In this document: in pieces, positions 37,494-47,318 of the stretch
Layout: every line of letters begins with the position of its first letter
Position numbering within the stretch: position 1 is the stretch's first letter
Virus record (IMG/VR): IMGVR_UViG_2675903417_000001
Location: 1-47,318 of that record
Length of the DNA stretch: 47,318 bases
Direction: 5' to 3' (one strand)
Origin: a virus
Taxonomy: Duplodnaviria; Heunggongvirae; Uroviricota; Caudoviricetes
The notes under the pieces: generated by a model
What the model saw: the letters and a program-made list of their open reading frames with translations, nothing else
Told to the model about the DNA's origin: nothing
Databases searched by the model: none
Made by a program: the position numbers and the translations under genes

Positions 37494-37512
37494 CTATTCG
37501 GAGATAGCACTC

Positions 37513-37713
37513 ATGCAACACGAACTACAACCTGATTCACTGGTTGATTTGAAATTCATCATGGCTGATACTGGCTTTGGTAAAACCTTCATCTACGACC
37601 GGATTAAGTCCGGCGACCTGCCAAAAGCCAAAGTTATCCACGGGCGAGCAAGATGGTTATATCGTGACCATTGTGAATTCAAAAATAAGCTCTTAAGCCG
37701 CGCCAATGGGTAA
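37513..37713 (+). CDS. AlpA/Xis-like HTH DNA-binding protein
   Basis: 66-aa ORF; 'LKFIMADTGFGKTFIYDRIKSGDLPKAKVIHGRARWLYRDHCEF' fits the AlpA/excisionase pattern; lies between the two tRNA-like fragments. Confidence 0.55.
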   Translation: MQHELQPDSLVDLKFIMADTGFGKTFIYDRIKSGDLPKAKVIHGRARWLYRDHCEFKNKLLSRANG

Positions 37714-37786
37714 AATAGCGGGTAAAATATTTTTCACATCTAAAAAACACCATTCCAATCAATCCCCTGCTGCTTCAAGTAGATGT

Positions 37787-37799
37787 CTGCAGGGGACAC
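37787..37799 (+). other. tRNA 3'-acceptor-like fragment (CTGCAGGGGACAC); candidate attL core of the integrase element
   Basis: About 175 bp upstream of the integrase start; part of an 8-bp inverted repeat TCCCCTGC...GCAGGGGA (37763-37796); matches the 3' end of argW as recalled. Confidence 0.35.
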
Positions 37800-37972
37800 T
37801 TTAAAGACCTTTCTCTACATTTCACTTCATTACATAACCACTTAAAAAACAGTAAGTTATCACCGAATCGGCCTGATTTTCATTTCAGTTAATTTCATGA
37901 CATTACAACCTCGTGATGGTATAAGTGATGGTATTCCCCAGTTCGATATGCAGATACCATCAATTTACCAAA

Positions 37973-39259
37973 ATGAGTACAGATATGGCCATTAATGTGC
38001 TTTCCCCCAAACAGATAGAAAACGCCAAGCCGAAGACCAATGATTACAAACTTACCGATGGAGGGAGTTTGTATCTACTGGTACGAAAGACTGGTGGAAA
38101 ATACTGGCGTATGAATTATCGTTTTGATGGAAAACAAGTGACATTGGCATTAGGGGTCTACCCAGATGTCTCACTTGCAACAGCGCGGAAACGGCGTGAT
38201 GAAGCCAGGCAACTACTAACCGATGGTCGTGATCCTCGCGAAGCAAAGAAACCCAAAAAGGAAGACCCAATTTCCCCCACGTTCGAGAGTGTTGCCAGAG
38301 AGTGGCATAGTGGAACGATGGGGCATCCTGAGTGGAAAGAGATCACCCGTAAAAAAATTCTCCGAGAAATGGAAAACCACCTCTTTCCTGCCATCGGTTC
38401 AAAGCCTATCGATACGCTCAAAACCCGTGACTTGATGCCGATGCTGGTTGAGATGACTGAGAAAGGAATTGGTGCCACAACGAGCCGGGTAAAAACCACT
38501 ATGACGAGCATCTTCCGTTATGCAGTGCAACGTGGAATTGTCGATTACAACCCTGCCCACGATCTAAAAGGTGCAATTACGGCCCCCAAAGTACGACATC
38601 GCCCCGCACTACCTCTCGAACGTTTACCTGAACTGTTAGCGAAAACGAGAAGTTACACGGGAAGACCATTGACTCGCCTAGCAGTTCTCTTTTCCCTGCA
38701 CACTTTTGTGCGATCCAGCGAACTACGACATGCCAGATGGGAGGAGATCGACATTGAAAATGGGCTATGGACGATACCAGGACAACGTGAAGAGATCGCA
38801 GGGGTTAAATTCTCAGATCGGGGTGCAAAGATGGGGGCTGCTCATTATGTCCCGCTATCTAGTCAGGCTATCGGGGTACTGGAGGATATAAGGAAAATCA
38901 GTGGTGAATATCTGCTGGTTTTCCCCGGTGACAGCAACCCATATAAACCGATGAGCGAAAACACAGTTAATAAAGCACTGCGAACGATGGGTTACGACAC
39001 TCAAACTGATGTATGCTTGCATGGGTTCAGGGCGATGGCCTGCTCTGCACTGACCGAATCAGGACTCTGGTCACGCGATGCAGTTGAACGGCAGATGAGT
39101 CACCAAGAAAGAAACGAAGTGCGGGCAGCATATGTGCATCTTGCGCAGCACATGCAGGAACGCCGCAGAATGATGCAATGGTGGTCTAATTATCTGGAAC
39201 TAAATAAGGACGAATTTCATGCTCCTTATGACTTATCAGGTATTAACATTATCAATTAA
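37973..39259 (+). CDS. int: P4-type tyrosine integrase
   Basis: ORF 37925-39259 (GTG); likely start ATG 37973 or 37985. N-terminal 'AKPKTNDYKLTDGGSLYLLVRKTGGKYWRMNYRFDGKQVTLALGVYPDVSLATARKRRDEAR' is typical of the P4 integrase arm-binding domain; C-terminal catalytic region with 'HGFRAM' and 'RAAYVHL'. Confidence 0.85.
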   Translation: MSTDMAINVLSPKQIENAKPKTNDYKLTDGGSLYLLVRKTGGKYWRMNYRFDGKQVTLALGVYPDVSLATARKRRDEARQLLTDGRDPREAKKPKKEDPISPTFESVAREWHSGTMGHPEWKEITRKKILREMENHLFPAIGSKPIDTLKTRDLMPMLVEMTEKGIGATTSRVKTTMTSIFRYAVQRGIVDYNPAHDLKGAITAPKVRHRPALPLERLPELLAKTRSYTGRPLTRLAVLFSLHTFVRSSELRHARWEEIDIENGLWTIPGQREEIAGVKFSDRGAKMGAAHYVPLSSQAIGVLEDIRKISGEYLLVFPGDSNPYKPMSENTVNKALRTMGYDTQTDVCLHGFRAMACSALTESGLWSRDAVERQMSHQERNEVRAAYVHLAQHMQERRRMMQWWSNYLELNKDEFHAPYDLSGINIIN

Positions 39260-39289
39260 ATACTCTTATAATTTAAAACAGAGGTCATA

Positions 39290-40171
39290 ATGCAGCATTC
39301 AACAGAGAATGAAACTATATTCTTAGGAAATCTATGGATTGACAAAAAAATACCACCATTAGAATATTGTTCATTTGAACGCGCTTCAAGACTATTAGAA
39401 TGCGAGATTGATGATTTATTACACCTATACGAAATAGGCGCTTTTAATATCGCATTCAAGGCGGATGGACTTGCAGTTAGATTTAATGTTAATTTCCTCA
39501 ATAAAAATCAGAAAATGGAAATTGACTTAATTCATCCCGTATTAACTAATCAATCACTAGAGATGGAGTTTTCAACAATATGGTATGACCTTAAAGATGA
39601 TTCCTTTGAACATTTTGAAAATGGGCTTCAAATTATAGGATTTGCCTGTGGTATTTGGTACGCCGATGATATGATAAGTGACATAAAAAATGGATTAGCT
39701 ATAGATCCAGATTATGAATTCAGGCTTAAACCGGTAAAAATACGAGATAATGTTTTGATGGCAACGGCCTCATATGAAGGAAATAAGGTCATTGATATTC
39801 CATTTGAAGATCTTCTTATCATGCGAAGAGATTTAGAGTTAATATGGAAATCAGTAAAAACTGGAATTCCTATGCCAAGTTTACTTACGAAAAGAATTTC
39901 ATCTGAACCTAAAATCCCCAAGCGATTAAATAACACTGCTGAGCATCATGCAAAAAATAGGGAGGGGTTATTAAATGCAGCCATATATATTTTAGCAAAA
40001 TACCCAAGCGAATGTCGTGGTGAAAGAAAAGAGATAAGTCCTGAAAAGTGGACTAACGCCATAATTAAACATTTAGGAGAGCTACCTCCAATATTTATCA
40101 CTAATGAACAAGAAATCTTAAGAAAATTACGATTAGCGGTTAATCATGCGGGGTTAAAACAAAAGGGGTAG
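39290..40171 (+). CDS. hypothetical AT-rich cargo protein (293 aa)
   Basis: ORF starting 31 nt after int stop; visibly low GC relative to int and downstream satellite genes; no motif recognised. Confidence 0.6.
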   Translation: MQHSTENETIFLGNLWIDKKIPPLEYCSFERASRLLECEIDDLLHLYEIGAFNIAFKADGLAVRFNVNFLNKNQKMEIDLIHPVLTNQSLEMEFSTIWYDLKDDSFEHFENGLQIIGFACGIWYADDMISDIKNGLAIDPDYEFRLKPVKIRDNVLMATASYEGNKVIDIPFEDLLIMRRDLELIWKSVKTGIPMPSLLTKRISSEPKIPKRLNNTAEHHAKNREGLLNAAIYILAKYPSECRGERKEISPEKWTNAIIKHLGELPPIFITNEQEILRKLRLAVNHAGLKQKG

Positions 40172-40273
40172 ACTGAAACAATCTACAGGTAGAGTTGATT
40201 ACACTACCTTCACAGCATTTTGATATCCCCATAGTATCTGCCGTGTTCATTACATAACACGGCAGGTAATTTC

Positions 40274-40489
40274 ATGACATTAAAAACTTATCCTATCACT
40301 GGACATGCCCGCCCACGAGCTACTGCTGACTTTTTGCAAATAAGTACGGTTACTCTCTGGCGCTGGGAAAAGAACAATCCTGAATTTCCCAAATCTATAC
40401 GCATTTCAAAACGGGTATCTGTTTACGATGCACAAGAAATTAGGCAGTGGGTTAAAGCTCAATCAGCAGGATTGGAGGAAGTAGTGTAA
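40274..40489 (+). CDS. alpA: AlpA-family transcriptional regulator
   Basis: 71-aa ORF; 'DFLQISTVTLWRWEKNNPEFPKSIRISKRVSVYDAQEIRQWV' fits AlpA HTH pattern. Confidence 0.7.
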   Translation: MTLKTYPITGHARPRATADFLQISTVTLWRWEKNNPEFPKSIRISKRVSVYDAQEIRQWVKAQSAGLEEVV

Positions 40490-40538
40490 TGACAATATTA
40501 ACAAAGCTGGGGAGAAAAAAGCCTCCCCAACGTATTAA

Positions 40539-40733
40539 TCAATTCTTTGGTTCTAAACCTCGGCTTTGTAACTCTTTGCGTAGAATGCGCTTGATCCAAG
40601 CCGCTAGCGATTCATCGCCATCCTGCTGTTGTGCTTGTTCCATCAGTTCACGCAGTTCAGGGTCAAGTCGGAACTGGAATGGCGGATTCCCACGTCTTTC
40701 ATTTTTGTGTGTTGACACGTCAATTACACCCAT
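40539..40733 (-). CDS. possible ribbon-helix-helix regulator
   Basis: 64-aa ORF; 'PPFQFRLDPELRELMEQ' resembles an RHH strand-helix; divergent from icd-like gene. Confidence 0.4.
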   Translation of the reverse strand: MGVIDVSTHKNERRGNPPFQFRLDPELRELMEQAQQQDGDESLAAWIKRILRKELQSRGLEPKN

Positions 40734-40765
40734 TGTAATGTATTTATGTGTAATGACACATTACA
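40712..40765. promoter_or_regulatory. palindrome-rich divergent control region
   Basis: Perfect palindrome TTGACACGTCAA (40712-40723) and inverted repeat GTGTAATG-ACA-CATTACAC (40747-40765), plus repeated GTAATG motifs. Confidence 0.35.
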
Positions 40766-40849
40766 CACAGAAAAACAAAATAGCAACGCCCCGGAGTGTT
40801 TGCAGCAGCACCGAGGCGTCTGACCAGCACGTTATATGAGGTAACGAAG

Positions 40850-41026
40850 ATGGCTAAACAGAAGTGTACCTGGTTATTTGCGGCGATCAACCGCAGTCAA
40901 CGTAATGCCCGTCCGGTGATGTTAAGGATCATCGCAGATAACGAACGATCAGCGCGGCGCAGACTTGCCCCGGACTATGTACTGAGCTTTGCCGGGCGCA
41001 TTCCCTGCGGAGGTGAACATGCGTAA
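40850..41026 (+). CDS. Icd-like small protein
   Basis: ORF 40796-41026; likely start ATG 40850 with GAGG 8 nt upstream; 'WLFAAINRSQRNARPVMLRIIADNERSARRRLAPDYVLSFAGRIP' resembles Icd-like proteins of P4-like elements as recalled. Confidence 0.45.
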   Translation: MAKQKCTWLFAAINRSQRNARPVMLRIIADNERSARRRLAPDYVLSFAGRIPCGGEHA

Positions 41027-41378
41027 TTATCCGCACCCCGGCGAACGCTGGCAGCATGAACGTGGCTGGACGGTCACGATTATCCGATTAATAGAAGCCT
41101 CGCCCTCTGTGGCGCTGGTTAATCCTGAATTCAGCTGTGAAGTGCTGATACGTCATGACAGCGACAACCAGCTATCCTCCTGCCCTCTGGCATGGTTTGA
41201 ACAGCGGTATACGCGCCTGTTTGATGTACCGCTCTTTAAGCCTGCACCAGCTCCTGCAGGCGGTAGTGGTTCCGGCCCGCTGACACTGCATCCGTCTGTG
41301 CTATTTATCCGCTGGCGGGAGCGTAGCATATGGCGCTCTGCTGAGCCTGACGACGGTCACTATTCAAAGTTTCTCTGA
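41019..41378 (+). CDS. hypothetical protein
   Basis: ORF 40989-41378; likely start ATG 41019 with GGAGG 5 nt upstream, overlapping upstream stop. Confidence 0.4.
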   Translation: MRNYPHPGERWQHERGWTVTIIRLIEASPSVALVNPEFSCEVLIRHDSDNQLSSCPLAWFEQRYTRLFDVPLFKPAPAPAGGSGSGPLTLHPSVLFIRWRERSIWRSAEPDDGHYSKFL

Positions 41379-41409
41379 CAAAATACCGCTGAAAACGGAG
41401 TAATCCACG

Positions 41410-41694
41410 ATGAATATTTCAAACGGGCACAACGGTGCTCAGGGCCACACTTTGCCTGAAAAACACAATACCGGTGCTTTTGCCTATGGGTTGTCAGAGG
41501 ACAGTTTCGGAAAGCTGACCCGCGCAAGAAATGCCTGCGACATGCTCCAGCTTCTCTTTTCTGAATACCCGTCTCAGGCCGGAGCACTGGACGCTGGCTG
41601 TGCGCATGGTGTCGCCGCGCTGATGGAGTACCTGCTGGCAGATTTGACGGATATTGCACACAGCTGCGCACTGATTGAAGGAGGTGCCAGATGA
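41410..41694 (+). CDS. hypothetical protein
   Basis: 94-aa ORF upstream of primase; overlaps next start. Confidence 0.4.
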   Translation: MNISNGHNGAQGHTLPEKHNTGAFAYGLSEDSFGKLTRARNACDMLQLLFSEYPSQAGALDAGCAHGVAALMEYLLADLTDIAHSCALIEGGAR

Positions 41695-42074
41695 ACCAGC
41701 CGCAGGTTTCCATTTTCCCGGCAGAAATGACCACCGCGCTTTACCGGCGGGCTATTGCTTCAGCATGGCGGCAGAAAATGCTGAACGAAACTGGCAGTGA
41801 TCAGTATGGTCCGCACAGCCTGACGGTGGAGCGTATTGAAATGGCCATTGCGCTGCATATCGAGTGCGTACTGATTAACGAGTACGGCGAAGTGCAGGGC
41901 GCCGCTGCCGCGCTGGCACTGCTGACTGACATGCTGGAGCCGTCACTGCTGACCGCGCCGCCGGTACTGACCGCGCGCGGCTGTGAAGTGATGGCGGAGA
42001 TGTACCGCACGCTTCCGGCGGCCTTTGATGACTTCTGCAGTACCGGTGTGACGTTGTATGAGGGGGAAGTATGA
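41691..42074 (+). CDS. hypothetical protein
   Basis: 127-aa ORF coupled to primase gene (ATGA overlap). Confidence 0.4.
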   Translation: MNQPQVSIFPAEMTTALYRRAIASAWRQKMLNETGSDQYGPHSLTVERIEMAIALHIECVLINEYGEVQGAAAALALLTDMLEPSLLTAPPVLTARGCEVMAEMYRTLPAAFDDFCSTGVTLYEGEV

Positions 42075-44743
42075 CAATACAGACGGTTACGCAGATTTCA
42101 GCCGCCGCACGGGGGAAATGGCCCGTTATTCTGCAGATGCTGCGTATTGATGTACCTGAAAACGGCAGGCACGGTCCCTGCCCGAAATGTGGGGGCAAGG
42201 ATCGTTTTCGCCTTGATGACCTTGACGGGCGCGGGACGTGGATCTGCAGCCAGTGTGGCAATGGTGACGGTCTGGATCTGGTTAAGCTCGTAACCGGTTA
42301 CAGCGTCAGAAAGGCTGCGCAGGAGGTGGCGCAGGTGCTTAATGTGCCGGATGTGCAGGAACTGCCTGTTAAGCCTGCCAGACAAAAAGCCCCTAAACGC
42401 GACATGGGTCTTACCGTGGCGGCGCTGATGAAAGAGAGCCACACGGGAGAAAGCGCCTATCTGACAGGAAAAGGGTTCGCCGGATACCCGGCCTCTCTGA
42501 CCGGAAGCGTGCAGCATATCAGCGGTAAGGATTTTCCTGCCGGTTCCCTGCTGTTACCACTCACGACCAACACCGGAGCCGTGACCGGTGCACAGCTTAT
42601 CGCCCCGACGGGTGAAAAAAGCATACTGCCCGGCAGCACGATGAAAGGCGCGTTTGTGTCGCTCAGCCCGTTACCGTCTGAACCACCGGTACAGGTGGTG
42701 ATTACCGAAGGTTACGCTACGGCGCTGACGGTAAGCCAGCTCACTGCCGGATGCGTAGTGGCTGCCATATCTGCGGGCAACCTGCCCAATGTGGCGCAGT
42801 CGCTGCGGGCACGCTGGCCTGAGGTAAAAATTATCATCGCCGGTGATAACGATTTTCAGGACGGGGGTGAGAATCCCGGCAGAGCCTTTGCTGAACGGGC
42901 GGCAAAAGCTGTTGGCGGCTGGATGACGCTGCCACCAGGAGAGATTAAGGCTGACTGGAATGACTTTCATCGGGAGCACGGTATTACCCGTGCCCGTGAA
43001 GCCTTTCGCAACGGTCTGGTACTGTGCGGGGAAGGCCGCACGCAACTGCCGCACGGGTTCCGTCTTACCCAGGAATATCTCTGGTATGAAAAGCAGGTAC
43101 AGCGCAACGGTGAGACGGAGATCCAGAACGTCAAAATATGCAGCCCGCTGCGCGTGACGGCAATCACCTGCGATGCCGATGGCGGTAACTTCGGACGACT
43201 GCTGGAATGGGAAGATACGTGGGGTGAGTGTCGCCGCTGGGCGATGCCGATGGAAATGCTGAGCGGCAGTGGTGAGGAACTGCGCCGGGTACTGCTGGTT
43301 AACGGGCTGTCTTATATCAGCACCACCGGTGAGGCACGCGCACGCCTGATGGAATATATCTCACTGTGTAAACCGGAACGCCGCGTGACCTGCGTCAGTC
43401 GTACTGGCTGGCATGGTCAGGTTTACGTCCTGCAGGATGAGGTCAGCGGTGAAGGTGCAGAGGGTGTCATTCTCCAGACCACTTCCGTGCAGGGGCGTGA
43501 TTTCCGCGTGTCGGGCACAACAGAGGAATGGCGGGAGCATGTATCCCGCTACTGTACCGGCAACTCCCGCGTGGCATTTGCTGTCAGCCTGGCCTTTGCT
43601 GCACCACTGTTACGGCTGGTTGGTATGGACGGCGGCGGCTACCACCTCAAAGGGGAATCGACAGACGGTAAGACCACCACCATGAAAGCGGCAACCTCCG
43701 TCTGCGGCGGGCCTGACTACTGGCAGACATGGCGGGCCACCGGCAACGCGCTGGAGGGATGCGCCAGCCGCCGCAACGATGCTGCCATGATGCTTGATGA
43801 GATCCGGGAAGTTGACGGACGCGAGGCAGGCAATATCGCCTACATGCTGGCAAACGGTCAGGGCAAGGGCCGTGCCGGTACGGACGGTGAGCTGCGTACC
43901 CGTAAGCAGTGGCGCCTGTTGTTCTTTTCAACTGGCGAGTTGTCTCTGACCGAACATGCGGCAAAGGCCGGTGAGCGTACTTTTGCCGGGATGGAAGTCA
44001 GGATGATCCAGATCCCCAGCGATTCCGGGAAGTTTGGCGTTTTTGAGGAGCTGCACGGCTTCGACAGCGGCAAGGCTCTGGCAGAGCATCTTGAATGGGC
44101 CACGTCCTGCTACTACGGTTCGCCGTTCCGGGAGTGGCTGAAAGCACTGACCGCTGATCTTAACGGACTAACGGCACAGGCAAAATCGCTGATGAAGGAA
44201 TATGCTGCCGCCCTGACTCCTAAAGATGCAGGCAATCAGGTGGGCCGGGCTGTGAACCGCTTTGCACTGGTGGCGATGGCAGGTGAACTGGCAACCCGTC
44301 TGGGTATCACCGGCTGGCCTGAGGGTGAAGCACTGCGGGCAACCCGCGTCTGCCTGAACGCATGGCTGAAAGATCGCGGGCACACCGCCAATCAGGAAGA
44401 TATCGCCGCACTGGAGCAGGTTCGCAGTTTCTTTACCGCGAATCAGTACAGCCGCTTTGCAGACTGGTATGACGAGCGCAACCGCCCCGGCAATATGGTG
44501 GGCTGGCGCAGGGTGGAGAAAGGCAGTACCGCGCAGGGCACGGAAGCTGTCACTACGTTCTATGTCATGCCGTCCGGCTGGAAAGAAATCTGCAGGGGAT
44601 TTGACCCGCGCAAGGTGGCGCGTCTGTGCGTAGATCGTGGATACCTGCTGCCCTCCACTGATGGCAAACTCCAGACAACCATTCGCCCGCCAGAGATGAA
44701 TCCCCGCAGGCTCTATGTCTTCAACAGCGAGGTGCCGGGTTAA
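42071..44743 (+). CDS. primase/helicase-type replication protein (zinc-ribbon + TOPRIM + C-terminal NTPase; P4 alpha-like)
   Basis: 890-aa ORF; zinc ribbon 'CPKCGGKDRFRLDDLDGRGTWICSQCG', TOPRIM 'VVITEGYATALTV...IIAGDND', Walker A-like 'GESTDGKTT'. Confidence 0.85.
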   Translation: MTIQTVTQISAAARGKWPVILQMLRIDVPENGRHGPCPKCGGKDRFRLDDLDGRGTWICSQCGNGDGLDLVKLVTGYSVRKAAQEVAQVLNVPDVQELPVKPARQKAPKRDMGLTVAALMKESHTGESAYLTGKGFAGYPASLTGSVQHISGKDFPAGSLLLPLTTNTGAVTGAQLIAPTGEKSILPGSTMKGAFVSLSPLPSEPPVQVVITEGYATALTVSQLTAGCVVAAISAGNLPNVAQSLRARWPEVKIIIAGDNDFQDGGENPGRAFAERAAKAVGGWMTLPPGEIKADWNDFHREHGITRAREAFRNGLVLCGEGRTQLPHGFRLTQEYLWYEKQVQRNGETEIQNVKICSPLRVTAITCDADGGNFGRLLEWEDTWGECRRWAMPMEMLSGSGEELRRVLLVNGLSYISTTGEARARLMEYISLCKPERRVTCVSRTGWHGQVYVLQDEVSGEGAEGVILQTTSVQGRDFRVSGTTEEWREHVSRYCTGNSRVAFAVSLAFAAPLLRLVGMDGGGYHLKGESTDGKTTTMKAATSVCGGPDYWQTWRATGNALEGCASRRNDAAMMLDEIREVDGREAGNIAYMLANGQGKGRAGTDGELRTRKQWRLLFFSTGELSLTEHAAKAGERTFAGMEVRMIQIPSDSGKFGVFEELHGFDSGKALAEHLEWATSCYYGSPFREWLKALTADLNGLTAQAKSLMKEYAAALTPKDAGNQVGRAVNRFALVAMAGELATRLGITGWPEGEALRATRVCLNAWLKDRGHTANQEDIAALEQVRSFFTANQYSRFADWYDERNRPGNMVGWRRVEKGSTAQGTEAVTTFYVMPSGWKEICRGFDPRKVARLCVDRGYLLPSTDGKLQTTIRPPEMNPRRLYVFNSEVPG

Positions 44744-44777
44744 GGCTTTGCGTGAGTCTTATTTATTAAGGGTAACA

Positions 44778-44965
44778 GGTGAAACAGGTGGAACAACCGT
44801 ATTTTACAGGGCTGAACCTGATCCACCTTCTGAAATAGTGAGGTGGAACAGATGTAACGCCAGCCAATCCGCTGTTCCACCTTGTTACCCGCGATGTTCC
44901 ACCGGTGCAGTGTATATAAATGCCTTATAAAACAAAGCAGTAACACATGTTTCACCTGTTCCACC
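44778..44965. repeat. iteron cluster (TGTT[C/T]CACC x7, both orientations); candidate satellite ori
   Basis: GGTGAAACA 44778, GGTGGAACA 44787 and 44842, TGTTCCACC 44873, 44895 and 44957, TGTTTCACC 44948; downstream of primase; resembles P4 type I iterons (TGTTCACC) as recalled. Confidence 0.55.
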
Positions 44966-45053
44966 GCATCAGGGACATAAAGCAGACTGAAACAGAGGGT
45001 ATTTTTATCTGGCTGGCTTTCATAGCCACGTCTGAATAACCGCAAGCGCCCGT

Positions 45054-45109
45054 TGTGCCAGCCACCACACACTGAGCACCGATAGTGTGCTTGTGTCAGC
45101 CACGACACA
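45054..45109 (+). promoter_or_regulatory. candidate Ogr/Delta-dependent late promoter upstream of sid
   Basis: Two TGT-N12-ACA dyads (45054-45071 and 45092-45109) 35-90 bp upstream of the sid ATG. Confidence 0.45.
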
Positions 45110-45143
45110 ATTGACGTAACGAACCAACCCGACAGGAGAAGTC

Positions 45144-45887
45144 ATGAACAACACCGCAGTGAATAACAACCTTTCCACTTTTCCGGCTGTAACGCAGCGG
45201 GCACTGGAAACCATGAACACAGCCAGAAACGCATGGCTTGAAGCACGTCGTCAGCAGAAAGCGGCAGCGGATAATATTGCGACAATCCGCCAGCGTCGCG
45301 CTGAAATGGAAGCCACGACGAACACACTGAATGAGGAGTGGCGCACGCTGTTTCGTGAAAGTCAGGGCGTGGTCTCAAAGGAAATGAAAAAACTGCGCAC
45401 GGAAATTGCGCTGGGACGAGAAACGCTTGAGGATTTTGATGAGCTGCTGGCGGCTCAGGAAAGCGAAAATGCACTTTTGCCGCAGAAAGCTGCGGAATTA
45501 GCCGGAAAGTATATCCACGCGCATAACATTCTTGTGGATATTCGCGCAAAACAAATCTGGGAAGATTTTATGCAGTCGCATGGAAAAGCGCTTATTCAGA
45601 CGCTGAGCCTGCTTAAATCCACAATGGGCCGGGAAGCCAGTGCCGTTGTGGGTGTGGTGAATTCAGTTAATGACCCGGACACAGTGCTGAAAGACTTTAT
45701 TCATAAACATATCACCAGACCGGCTCTGGCTAACGATGCGATGCCTGAACAGGACCCGGTGTTTAAACTGGCGGGAGTTGCCCCGGATTATGCGGCGCGT
45801 CTGGATTTCAGTAATCAACTCTCTCCGGCAGCTATGCATAAAATAAAGGTTCGTCAGGAACTTGCTGAGAAGGAGAAAGCAGTATGA
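45144..45887 (+). CDS. sid: Sid-like capsid size-determination protein
   Basis: 247-aa helical ORF immediately upstream of psu; size and position as P4 Sid; sequence not independently recognised. Confidence 0.5.
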   Translation: MNNTAVNNNLSTFPAVTQRALETMNTARNAWLEARRQQKAAADNIATIRQRRAEMEATTNTLNEEWRTLFRESQGVVSKEMKKLRTEIALGRETLEDFDELLAAQESENALLPQKAAELAGKYIHAHNILVDIRAKQIWEDFMQSHGKALIQTLSLLKSTMGREASAVVGVVNSVNDPDTVLKDFIHKHITRPALANDAMPEQDPVFKLAGVAPDYAARLDFSNQLSPAAMHKIKVRQELAEKEKAV

Positions 45888-46435
45888 CGGCCCGAGGCAC
45901 ACCTGACCAGGCACTTACCAGTTTTCGGAATGCCCGTATTCTGTGGGCCGGACATAGTGAGAGCCGAAAAGCCGTTGAACAACAGATAACATCTCTCCTC
46001 GCTGCCACAGAAAAACCAGCAGATTATGCCCGACAGCTCGAATTACTGCGGGAACGTCTGGATGTGCTGAAATGGCAAATTAACTGTGCTGCTCGGGAAT
46101 GCATTTACTCGCAGCATTTATTGATGGAGGCCTGCACAGAAGCTGCTCTCAGCAATTTTATGCAGGCGAATGGGGCAGCCCTGACATCTGCACTGGCTCC
46201 GTTCCTGAAGGGGCGCGGAGGGGTTGACGTTGCGTCCCGTATATTACGCAGTGCTCTGGTTCGCCAGCTGGCAATAACACCGCCTGAAATTGCCGGGGAT
46301 TATCGTGAGATCCTGGATGAATCCGGTTTGATGCCAGACCCCGGGATGATTCGTGATTGCCAGGGCTCTTACACCCCGGCACAACATCTGCGTTTTCAGC
46401 AACGCCTGAATGACATTAACGATATACAGGAGTGA
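45884..46435 (+). CDS. psu: Psu (polarity suppression / capsid decoration) protein
   Basis: 183-aa ORF; 'LKWQINCAARECI', 'NFMQANGAALTSALAPFL', 'YTPAQHLRF' align by eye with P4 Psu as recalled. Confidence 0.7.
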   Translation: MTARGTPDQALTSFRNARILWAGHSESRKAVEQQITSLLAATEKPADYARQLELLRERLDVLKWQINCAARECIYSQHLLMEACTEAALSNFMQANGAALTSALAPFLKGRGGVDVASRILRSALVRQLAITPPEIAGDYREILDESGLMPDPGMIRDCQGSYTPAQHLRFQQRLNDINDIQE

Positions 46436-46440
46436 TATTA

Positions 46441-46713
46441 ATGGCACTTAAATGTCCGGAATGCGGTACAGTTGCACACGCCAGAACAGCAGCCTATGAA
46501 GCTCCGTCAGTTAAACGCTCGTGGTATCAGTGCCAGAATCTGGAATGTTCCTGCACATTTACGGCACTGGAGAGTGTGGATAAGATAATCATGAAACCCC
46601 GGCGCAATGAACAGGAACCAGACAAATCACAAACCCCGGTAAAACAACAGCAAACGCTCAATCGCTATGGCTCCGCGTCAAAACTGTCAAGCCGTCAGCA
46701 GATTCCTGTCTAA
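46441..46713 (+). CDS. delta: Ogr/Delta-family zinc-finger late transcription activator
   Basis: ORF 46432-46713; from ATG 46441: 'MALKCPECGTVAHARTAAYEAPSVKRSWYQCQNLECSCTF' is the Ogr/Delta C2C2 pattern. Confidence 0.75.
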   Translation: MALKCPECGTVAHARTAAYEAPSVKRSWYQCQNLECSCTFTALESVDKIIMKPRRNEQEPDKSQTPVKQQQTLNRYGSASKLSSRQQIPV

Positions 46714-46733
46714 TTAGAAAAAAACGCCCACGT

Positions 46734-46760
46734 AATCCCGGTCGAGTACCGGGATTTTTA
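46734..46760 (+). terminator. intrinsic terminator after delta
   Basis: Hairpin AATCCCGGT-CGAGT-ACCGGGATT followed by TTTT. Confidence 0.5.
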
Positions 46761-46787
46761 ACACCTTTTCCCTGGCTGGCCTGAGAG

Positions 46788-46900
46788 CGCATGAGTGCAT
46801 GTCTATAGCGCATGAAAACGCATGAACCTTATGCACCATTTTTGACGAGAAAGCCCTTGTGTGGTGGCTTCTGAGACGATTTATGAGGTGCATGAAAACC
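46788..46900. repeat. cluster of GCATGA(A) direct repeats
   Basis: GCGCATGAG, TGCATG, GCGCATGAAAAC, GCATGAACC, ATGCACC and GTGCATGAAAACC within ~115 bp of non-coding DNA. Confidence 0.3.
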
Positions 46901-47198
46901 AGTCTGTTAAGCGAAGCGGGCAGGCGTGCGGGGCTGTTCGCATCAACATAAAAATAACGGGCTGATATAGTTATAAAATCAAATGAACTCTTTTAGTACG
47001 ACATGGGTATGTGCGCCAGTAGCAACGTCAGCCCCCAAGCTTTCTATTGTTCTTTTCTGTTGTACCATCAATACGTACCGATTAGCTCCTAAGCATCAAT
47101 ATCAGTTTGAACGTATTGCTTTGAACTAATTTTTAGATGATTTTTTTCATTAAAAAATTATAATGTTGTAGATAAAAAGAGAATCTTATAGAGGCGTT

Positions 47199-47318
47199 AT
47201 GTCAAATAAAGTTGATGTTTTTTTGAGCCGAGTTAGCCATGTATCACAGTTTGTATTGGTGGCATTTGCTATTTTTGGATATTTTTATACAGTAAGACCA
47301 ATTTACCAAAAGGAACTT
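47199..47318 (+). CDS. 5' end of an AT-rich ORF running out of the window (hydrophobic N-terminus)
   Basis: ATG 47199 with GAGG upstream; 'MSNKVDVFLSRVSHVSQFVLVAFAIFGYFYTVRPIYQKEL' open to window end. Confidence 0.3.
   Translation, partial: MSNKVDVFLSRVSHVSQFVLVAFAIFGYFYTVRPIYQKEL

Follow-up and report, generated by a model that had tools for sequence, protein, structure and literature searches.

An unnamed, fast-diversifying gene family between the integrase and alpA genes of P4-like and PICI-like satellites, and its possible role in alpA control

We have analysed here a gene carried by a P4-like satellite within a 47,318-nucleotide stretch of viral DNA (IMG/VR virus record IMGVR_UViG_2675903417_000001, positions 1 to 47,318), the whole of which we refer to as the window. 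The gene, designated gene X, occupies positions 39290-40171 on the plus strand and belongs to an unnamed family. It lies between int, which encodes a P4-type tyrosine integrase (37985-39259, plus strand), and alpA, which encodes a 71-residue regulator of the AlpA/Vis family (40274-40489, plus strand). The int product carries the Pfam domains Arm-DNA-bind_3, Phage_int_M and Phage_integrase and has a start equivalent to the RefSeq start, and the alpA product matches PF05930 (E = 1.6e-7). Gene X is a conserved and fast-diversifying part of an int-X-alpA control module of primase-carrying integrative satellites, and the hosts of this module include P4-like elements at argW and phage-inducible chromosomal island (PICI)-like elements at yicC and other sites.

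The reading frame of gene X starts with ATG, encodes 293 residues and ends in TAG (40169-40171). Thirty nucleotides separate it from the end of int at 39259, with the ATG beginning at the 31st base past int, and the ribosome-binding site AGAGGT (39281-39286, plus strand) precedes the start codon. A promoter-like site, TTAACA-18-TATAAT (39243-39272, plus strand), overlaps the end of int and matches the consensus at 11 of 12 positions; it lies in AT-rich DNA, and it is possible that it serves as gene X's own promoter. The GC fraction of gene X is 0.338 (0.255 at third codon positions), compared with 0.480 for int, 0.421 for alpA, 0.590 for the primase gene and 0.477 for the window as a whole. 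By our estimate the chance of an 882-nucleotide open frame at 34% GC is about 1e-10, full-length orthologues are found at 65-94% identity, and the ratio of nonsynonymous to synonymous substitution rates (dN/dS) is 0.17, 0.09 and 0.10 relative to the copies in three other loci (L019, L012 and L018 respectively; L numbers denote the loci compared with the window), similar to that of alpA. Gene X is therefore not a chance reading frame, but a real gene under purifying selection.

An earlier note on this DNA had reported an AT-rich reading frame here with neither a recognisable domain nor a transmembrane segment, and that description holds throughout. The X protein has no match in Pfam, NCBIfam or PADLOC (PADLOC-DB v2.0.0), its highest Kyte-Doolittle 19-residue mean is 0.94 and no transmembrane segment is found, and we detected no nuclease, NTPase or toxin feature. 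A PHROGs search with the X protein returned phrog_14918 as its sole match, which is insignificant (E = 0.11). We also note two disrupted copies of the gene. In ETEC1722 (L004 5031-6308) the insertion sequence IS1 cuts X after ~183 codons and the whole satellite to the right of IS1 is deleted, with dsdC following, and an IMG/VR copy (L020 5001-5708) is frameshifted.

The frame had also been called an orphan, which proves not to be the case. A profile search covering 1.84 billion cluster representatives returned 566 clusters (50% identity) of X relatives at E <= 1e-3, of which 176 reach E <= 1e-10. Nearly all of the 566 are 270-370 residues long and align end to end, and a word-indexed search returned 14 relatives that include the full-length orthologues described above. 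Twenty-eight of 105 aligned relatives match phrog_7144 (PHROGs v4, function unannotated), with a best E of 4.7e-78, and the window X itself fails to reach E <= 1 against this group. The relatives derive from Yersinia, Salmonella, Enterobacter, Lelliottia, Raoultella and Brenneria, and all are named 'hypothetical protein' in their sources. None of the 105 has a Pfam domain, the C-terminal-only variants and the isolated C-terminal domain are likewise without a Pfam match, and PADLOC gives only scattered weak matches to these relatives (E >= 4.6e-4, one member each). No match was obtained in a tblastn search of X against 50,697 phage records, and P4 proper therefore lacks gene X; a plasmid search gave weak or partial matches only, largely to mis-filed chromosomes. 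A literature search by RefSeq accession or PHROG identifier found no paper that mentions either. Judged by sequence similarity, the unnamed int-X-alpA family is large, widespread and uncharacterised, and overlaps phrog_7144.

These observations bear on one account of gene X, that it is a functionless, AT-rich passenger silenced by H-NS and kept by linkage, with the hairpins that follow it (described below) being ordinary terminators. The base composition, the truncated copies (by IS1 in L004 and by frameshift in L020) and the failure of homology to assign a function would all suit such a passenger, but dN/dS values of 0.09-0.17, comparable with alpA, would not, and neither would the retention of intact ~300-residue frames in hundreds of diverged clusters or the highly conserved motifs at both the N- and C-termini. 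We consider this account very improbable.

The position of the family is constant. We assembled 34 X-carrying loci by exact-protein look-up, pattern scans of genomes and IMG/VR, and BLAST of E. coli, with sources in E. coli, Yersinia, Serratia, Pantoea, Pectobacterium, Intestinirhabdus and metagenomes, and in all 34, as far as the contig extends, X lies directly downstream of a P4-type int and on the same strand. The X-family hidden Markov model matches in all loci with E values from 1e-38 to 1e-74. In most loci the int-X gap is between -4 and ~140 bp, and in most an AlpA/HTH_17 gene follows 102-113 bp past X, with the primase gene next. The module is seen both in argW P4-like elements and in elements that have a primase but lack sid and psu, which lie at yicC, beside asd or at other sites, and the linkage persists down to identities to the window of 27% for Int, 27-35% for AlpA and 35-38% for X. 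A Pantoea element provides a nearer comparison, with identities of 82% for Int, 67% for X, 86% for AlpA and 91% for the primase. In the yicC-type and asd-type elements the int-X spacer (~95 nucleotides) contains a conserved structured element with inner hairpins, CAGATTGAGCC...GGCTCAATC (L003 5179-5275, L011 5907-6004, L013 4328-4425 and L027 4114-4212; also L009, L014 and L022), in which six of 19 predicted pairs show compensatory changes; the window, with its gap of 30 nucleotides, lacks this element.

The earlier note had taken the AT-richness of the gene as a sign of recent acquisition. However, the GC fraction of X is 0.30-0.44 in every locus, and it is always 8-17 points under that of the locus's own int, in any element or genus. 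Low GC therefore characterises the family, or else the slot, and does not indicate that the gene came in recently.

The alleles that occupy this position are diverse. Of 5,426 complete E. coli genomes, 64 carry the window X allele, with all copies at least 98.6% identical and one of them cut by IS1; the allele of EC974 is present in 10, and one yicC allele in 41. Comparison of EC974 with the window gives identities of 76% for Int, 29% for X, 88% for AlpA and 98% for the primase, and this 29% allele between conserved flanks bears out the earlier suggestion that the locus varies among related satellites. Across 16 distinct loci the identities of Int and X are only weakly correlated (Spearman 0.35). 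Elements at yicC have Int proteins that are 85-94% identical, yet their X alleles are 21-37% identical, and conversely there are two elements with Int proteins 30% identical and X proteins 98% identical.

This weak correlation is pertinent to the proposal that X assists P4-type integrases in recombination, as a directionality or stability factor acting with Int and AlpA at the attachment (att) site through an Xis-like N-terminal fold. The invariable placement of X directly downstream of int and on the same strand, with the short gaps seen in most loci, is what would be expected of such a factor, and in related elements proteins of the AlpA/Vis family serve as excisionases or to activate excision (PMC6092414, PMC11773190). 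However, a dedicated partner should co-vary with the proteins that it serves, whereas X identity does not follow that of Int or AlpA, as the yicC elements illustrate, and att sites differ among elements. Moreover, the inverted repeats that follow X are 2.4 kb from the att core, with no further copy of their motif near att, and X, at 293 residues and acidic, is unlike the known directionality factors, which are small, basic proteins. We regard a role of this kind as improbable.

Not every satellite has a member of the X family in the int-alpA slot. In 205 of the 5,426 E. coli genomes leuX satellites carry there an unrelated 212-residue protein, X' (WP_001066505.1; for example L015 7324-7962, E. 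coli MRSN346595), which has no Pfam match and lies in a region with a GC fraction of 0.30-0.34. The primase of these satellites is 99.7% identical to that of the window; besides the slot gene, their int (48% identity) and alpA also differ from the window's. The homology break relative to the leuX satellites is at ~40810, to the right of a small YlcI/YnfO-family (DUF3950-like) gene situated between alpA and the icd-like gene (40539-40733, minus strand), and the exchangeable left module therefore consists of int-X-alpA-ylcI. In CP4-57 the slot contains yfjH on the opposite strand, and in EcCIMP1 a small unrelated open reading frame, EcCIMP1_002 (PMC11773190). These occupants resemble X in being AT-rich, uncharacterised and in the same slot, although X' and YfjH are non-homologous to it by hhalign and YfjH is antiparallel; both were considered as distant X homologues and rejected, with hhalign probabilities of 1.4% for X' and 0.3% for YfjH. 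Conservation in all related satellites, which the earlier note held would speak against cargo, is thus seen in the synteny of the family, but not in the leuX satellites with their unrelated 212-residue gene.

The segment to which the earlier note had drawn attention (39260-40273) also takes in the X-alpA intergenic region, and this contains conserved inverted repeats (IRs). IR-a (GTAGACTGAAACAATCTAC, 40168-40186) forms a stem at the X stop codon, and IR-b (GGTAGAGTTGATTACACTACC, 40188-40208) has a 9-bp stem that is kept in 11 loci with two compensatory pairs. The two repeats are built on a half site of approximately GTACAGT, have a centre-to-centre distance of 22 bp, and occur in this tandem arrangement in seven distinct loci. 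The motif is conserved across loci with X proteins ~35% identical, and no copy is present elsewhere in those loci. A putative alpA promoter, TTCACA-17-TAGTAT (40209-40237, plus strand), is weak, with nine of 12 matches, and IR-b abuts its -35 hexamer. It is followed by a perfect palindrome, CTGCCGTGTT-N8-AACACGGCAG (40238-40265, plus strand; z = -4.8), which directly precedes the alpA ATG and carries the alpA ribosome-binding site in its 3' arm.

The comparison with EC974 divides this region in two. EC974, whose X differs in allele and C-terminal type and whose AlpA is 88% identical to the window's, lacks both IR-a and IR-b, and its palindrome is identical. The homology break is sharp and falls at 40236, with a cassette composed of X, IR-a, IR-b and the putative alpA -35 and -10 hexamers on one side and the conserved palindrome and alpA on the other; the repeats and the putative alpA promoter are therefore part of the X cassette, and the palindrome goes with alpA. 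We considered IR-a and IR-b as AlpA sites and rejected this, as they are lost in EC974 despite the 88% identity of AlpA and the identical palindrome. Together the two repeats may be either a terminator of the int-X transcript or a double operator. Analogous repeats of differing sequence precede alpA in seven other loci, and the pre-alpA inverted repeat may act as a hairpin in translation or as a site of AlpA autoregulation. A pre-alpA inverted repeat is present in all loci examined (including L005, L009, L011, L003, L013 and L033), and in the yicC elements it takes the form CCCGTAAC/GTTACGGG. Apart from the repeats, no shared k-mer motifs in the int-X and X-alpA regions exceed shuffled controls.

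An AlphaFold2 model of X, built from the 105-sequence alignment (predicted local distance difference test score, pLDDT, 85.9; predicted template-modelling score 0.69), suggests four parts, three domains and a linker. The N-terminal domain (residues 20-54, 39347-39451) appears in the model to adopt a MerR/Xis-like winged-helix fold and is the most conserved part of the family. The central domain (residues 55-191, 39452-39862) is β-rich, hypervariable and strongly acidic, with pLDDT mostly above 80 and a conserved G-[IL]-W motif at G121-W123. The C-terminal domain (residues ~215-293, 39932-40168) is a basic four-helix domain, connected to the central domain by a basic linker and carrying the motif AEHHAxNRE...YPxECRGxxKEISPEKW. 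Median identity to the window X is 49% in the N-terminal domain, 14% in the centre and 32% in the C-terminal domain, and within X's own subfamily the last 75 residues are almost invariant, whereas the remainder is only ~30% identical. Calculated by part, dN/dS is 0.23 in the centre and 0.12-0.17 at the termini.

The distribution of charge is informative as to which part might contact nucleic acid. The N-terminal domain, with the second-helix consensus E-V-E-D-L-L-H-W, is acidic, with a negative charge in 90% of members (net -6.3 in X), and direct reading of DNA by this domain is therefore doubtful. The centre has a median charge of -9.8, and the C-terminal domain is basic and is a better candidate than the N-terminal domain for nucleic-acid contact. 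Searches for relatives of these folds were negative: Foldseek of the model against the PDB found nothing, sequence profiles of the whole family and of the C-terminal domain gave no significant match in the PDB, and the Pfam profiles MerR, MerR_1, HTH_17 and Phage_AlpA match none of the 105 members. The N-terminal domain was considered as a paralogue of AlpA or TorI and rejected, there being no hhalign match (AlpA probability 0.2%). X differs from the MerR and excisionase winged-helix proteins in that it lacks a Pfam MerR or HTH_17 match and a long dimerisation helix after the head, has an acidic surface, and has no counterpart there for its other 240 residues. AlpA and P4 Vis are similar to X as neighbours in the same module and as small helix-turn-helix proteins in the same broad fold class, although there is no detectable homology between them and X is four times larger with two extra domains.

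The window is DNA of E. coli, and the wider context of the satellite is best described by comparison with E. coli PM4, to which the 4.2 kb that begin at int and run as far as the gene preceding the primase are 99.9% identical. In PM4 the satellite stands alone at tRNA-Arg (argW), between yfdC and dsdC, with an intact tRNA-Arg preceding int, and the order is int, X, alpA, ylcI-like (minus strand), icd-like, three small open reading frames and a TOPRIM/DUF927 primase, followed by sid-like, psu, delta, a YecA-family gene and dsdC. The left end of the satellite in the window is a hybrid att junction, ctgcaggggaca (37789-37800), a copy of the 3' end of tRNA-Arg (argW); no complete tRNA was found in the window. 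To the left of the junction is a P22-like prophage ending in torI (37513-37713), with the satellite in tandem at argW, and the same prophage-satellite tandem is present in EC974 and ETEC1722. The order across 37985-46713 is int, X, alpA, icd-like, primase, sid-like, psu and delta on one strand, with the psu/sid/delta block at 45144-46713, and differs from the canonical P4 order int-psu-delta-sid-alpA-epsilon-alpha, which has been reported as typical (PMC8628076). The architecture of the window is common in E. coli, with the icd-to-primase core present at 95-99% identity in ~290 genomes. Rfam gives no match in 37500-47318, and thus no RNA like P4 CI/C4 was detected.

This context also defines where defence genes would be expected. 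P4-like elements have their defence hotspot between int and psu-delta-sid (PMC9122126, PMC13586616), which in the present arrangement means the right end of the element, beyond delta; a leuX relative carries retron St85 there (L015 15531-17451). In the window this end (46714-47318) is AT-rich, with a GC fraction of 0.39, and in PM4 (L001 21078-22541) it contains a 487-residue YecA-family gene on the minus strand. Gene X is on the other side of int from the hotspot, between int and alpA, and the earlier note's placement of it in a known variable hotspot next to int is not supported. X does resemble the cargo of P4 and P2 defence hotspots in being an AT-rich gene of a P4-like satellite that varies among relatives and has no assigned function, but it differs in its int-alpA rather than int-psu/delta location, in a slot that usually holds a homologue of the same family, and in having no match to a defence model.

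Nonetheless, a stand-alone role in conflict has to be weighed. On this account X would be an effector of anti-phage immunity, superinfection exclusion, helper interference or anti-defence (for example, a DNA-mimic-like acidic protein), expressed in the lysogen next to int, with its variable centre binding and blocking a phage or host-defence protein. Highly divergent alleles between conserved flanks, with allele classes common to several genera, are typical of arms-race loci, the slot elsewhere holds unrelated AT-rich genes (X', yfjH and EcCIMP1_002), and the body of the protein is strongly acidic. The 30-nucleotide gap and the promoter-like site make co-expression with int likely, and the existence of IS1-cut and frameshifted copies implies that X is dispensable for keeping the element. 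However, PADLOC gives no match for X and none that is meaningful for the 105 relatives, no nuclease, NTPase, toxin or transmembrane feature is detected, and X lies outside the hotspots of known P4-like systems (PMC13586616, PMC9122126). Hotspot cargo is normally swapped for unrelated genes, whereas the X family keeps its position over deep divergence of int and alpA, and the X cassette carries the alpA promoter region. We view a stand-alone effector as possible, but on the unlikely side.

The explanation that we favour, tentatively and at somewhat less than an even chance, is that X is a sensor or regulator with a variable input and a constant output, tied to the control of alpA. It is suggested by the fixed position of the family between int and alpA, the inclusion of the alpA promoter region within the cassette, and the lack of an effector-like fold, and we think it more likely that X is a phage-sensing control protein than random defence cargo. 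In this scheme X would probably be expressed together with int in the lysogen, with the transcript probably ended or roadblocked at the repeats. The MerR-like N-terminal and basic C-terminal domains would provide the constant output by binding the repeats beside the alpA promoter and/or a conserved protein partner, and the hypervariable acidic centre would provide the variable input through recognition of a variable ligand, most plausibly a protein of a helper or competitor phage. X would thereby gate AlpA, the activator of excision and replication. The DNA binding, the ligand sensing, the effect on alpA and the pattern of transcription are all elements that we infer. We note that Gram-negative PICIs are described as controlled by the AlpA activator, with no known repressor (PMC6092414), and that a repressor or sensor coupling alpA induction to the helper phage is not known in them (PMC6092414, PMC11773190).

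Several observations weigh against a regulator of alpA. Acidic residues are located where the recognition helix would be, which is unusual for a reader of DNA and resembles the protein-binding MerR fold of CbpM. Distant loci show ordinary terminator-like hairpins after X, and a terminator of int-X remains sufficient to explain the repeats. P4 itself and the model PICIs function without X, EcCIMP1 (PMC11773190) and the ~205 E. coli genomes with X' hold unrelated genes in the slot, and X runs in the same direction as alpA, whereas stl and str of the Staphylococcus aureus pathogenicity islands (SaPIs) are divergent. The probability that remains after the readings discussed here is reserved for functions beyond them.

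A more specific form of the regulator proposal comes from comparison with SaPI Stl and PICI Rpr, the master repressors of Gram-positive PICIs. Stl has a conserved head and a variable part that binds helper-phage proteins, and X has a similar modular layout. Both Stl and Rpr also resemble X in lying next to int, in being very divergent among related islands, and in adjoining the gene that sets off excision and replication. However, X has no sequence or fold relationship to either and its N-terminal domain is acidic, and in contrast to Stl it is not divergent from a str/xis operon, the candidate operators IR-a and IR-b lying instead between the co-directional X and alpA genes. X could be what couples the induction of Gram-negative satellites to the helper phage, a protein with a new fold that is Stl-like in function, with the termini restraining the alpA promoter (or AlpA or Int) and the centre capturing a specific phage protein. 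Stated in this full form we think the proposal unlikely.

If it is true, each X allele would set which phages wake the satellite. Enterobacteria very commonly carry P4-like satellites and Gram-negative PICIs, elements that influence both phage defence and gene transfer, and the X family is a concrete candidate for the helper-sensing step, or else for a new single-protein conflict factor outside the known hotspots. The analysis also corrects a misreading that would recur in many genomes, in that an AT-rich gene beside int need not be recently acquired defence cargo.

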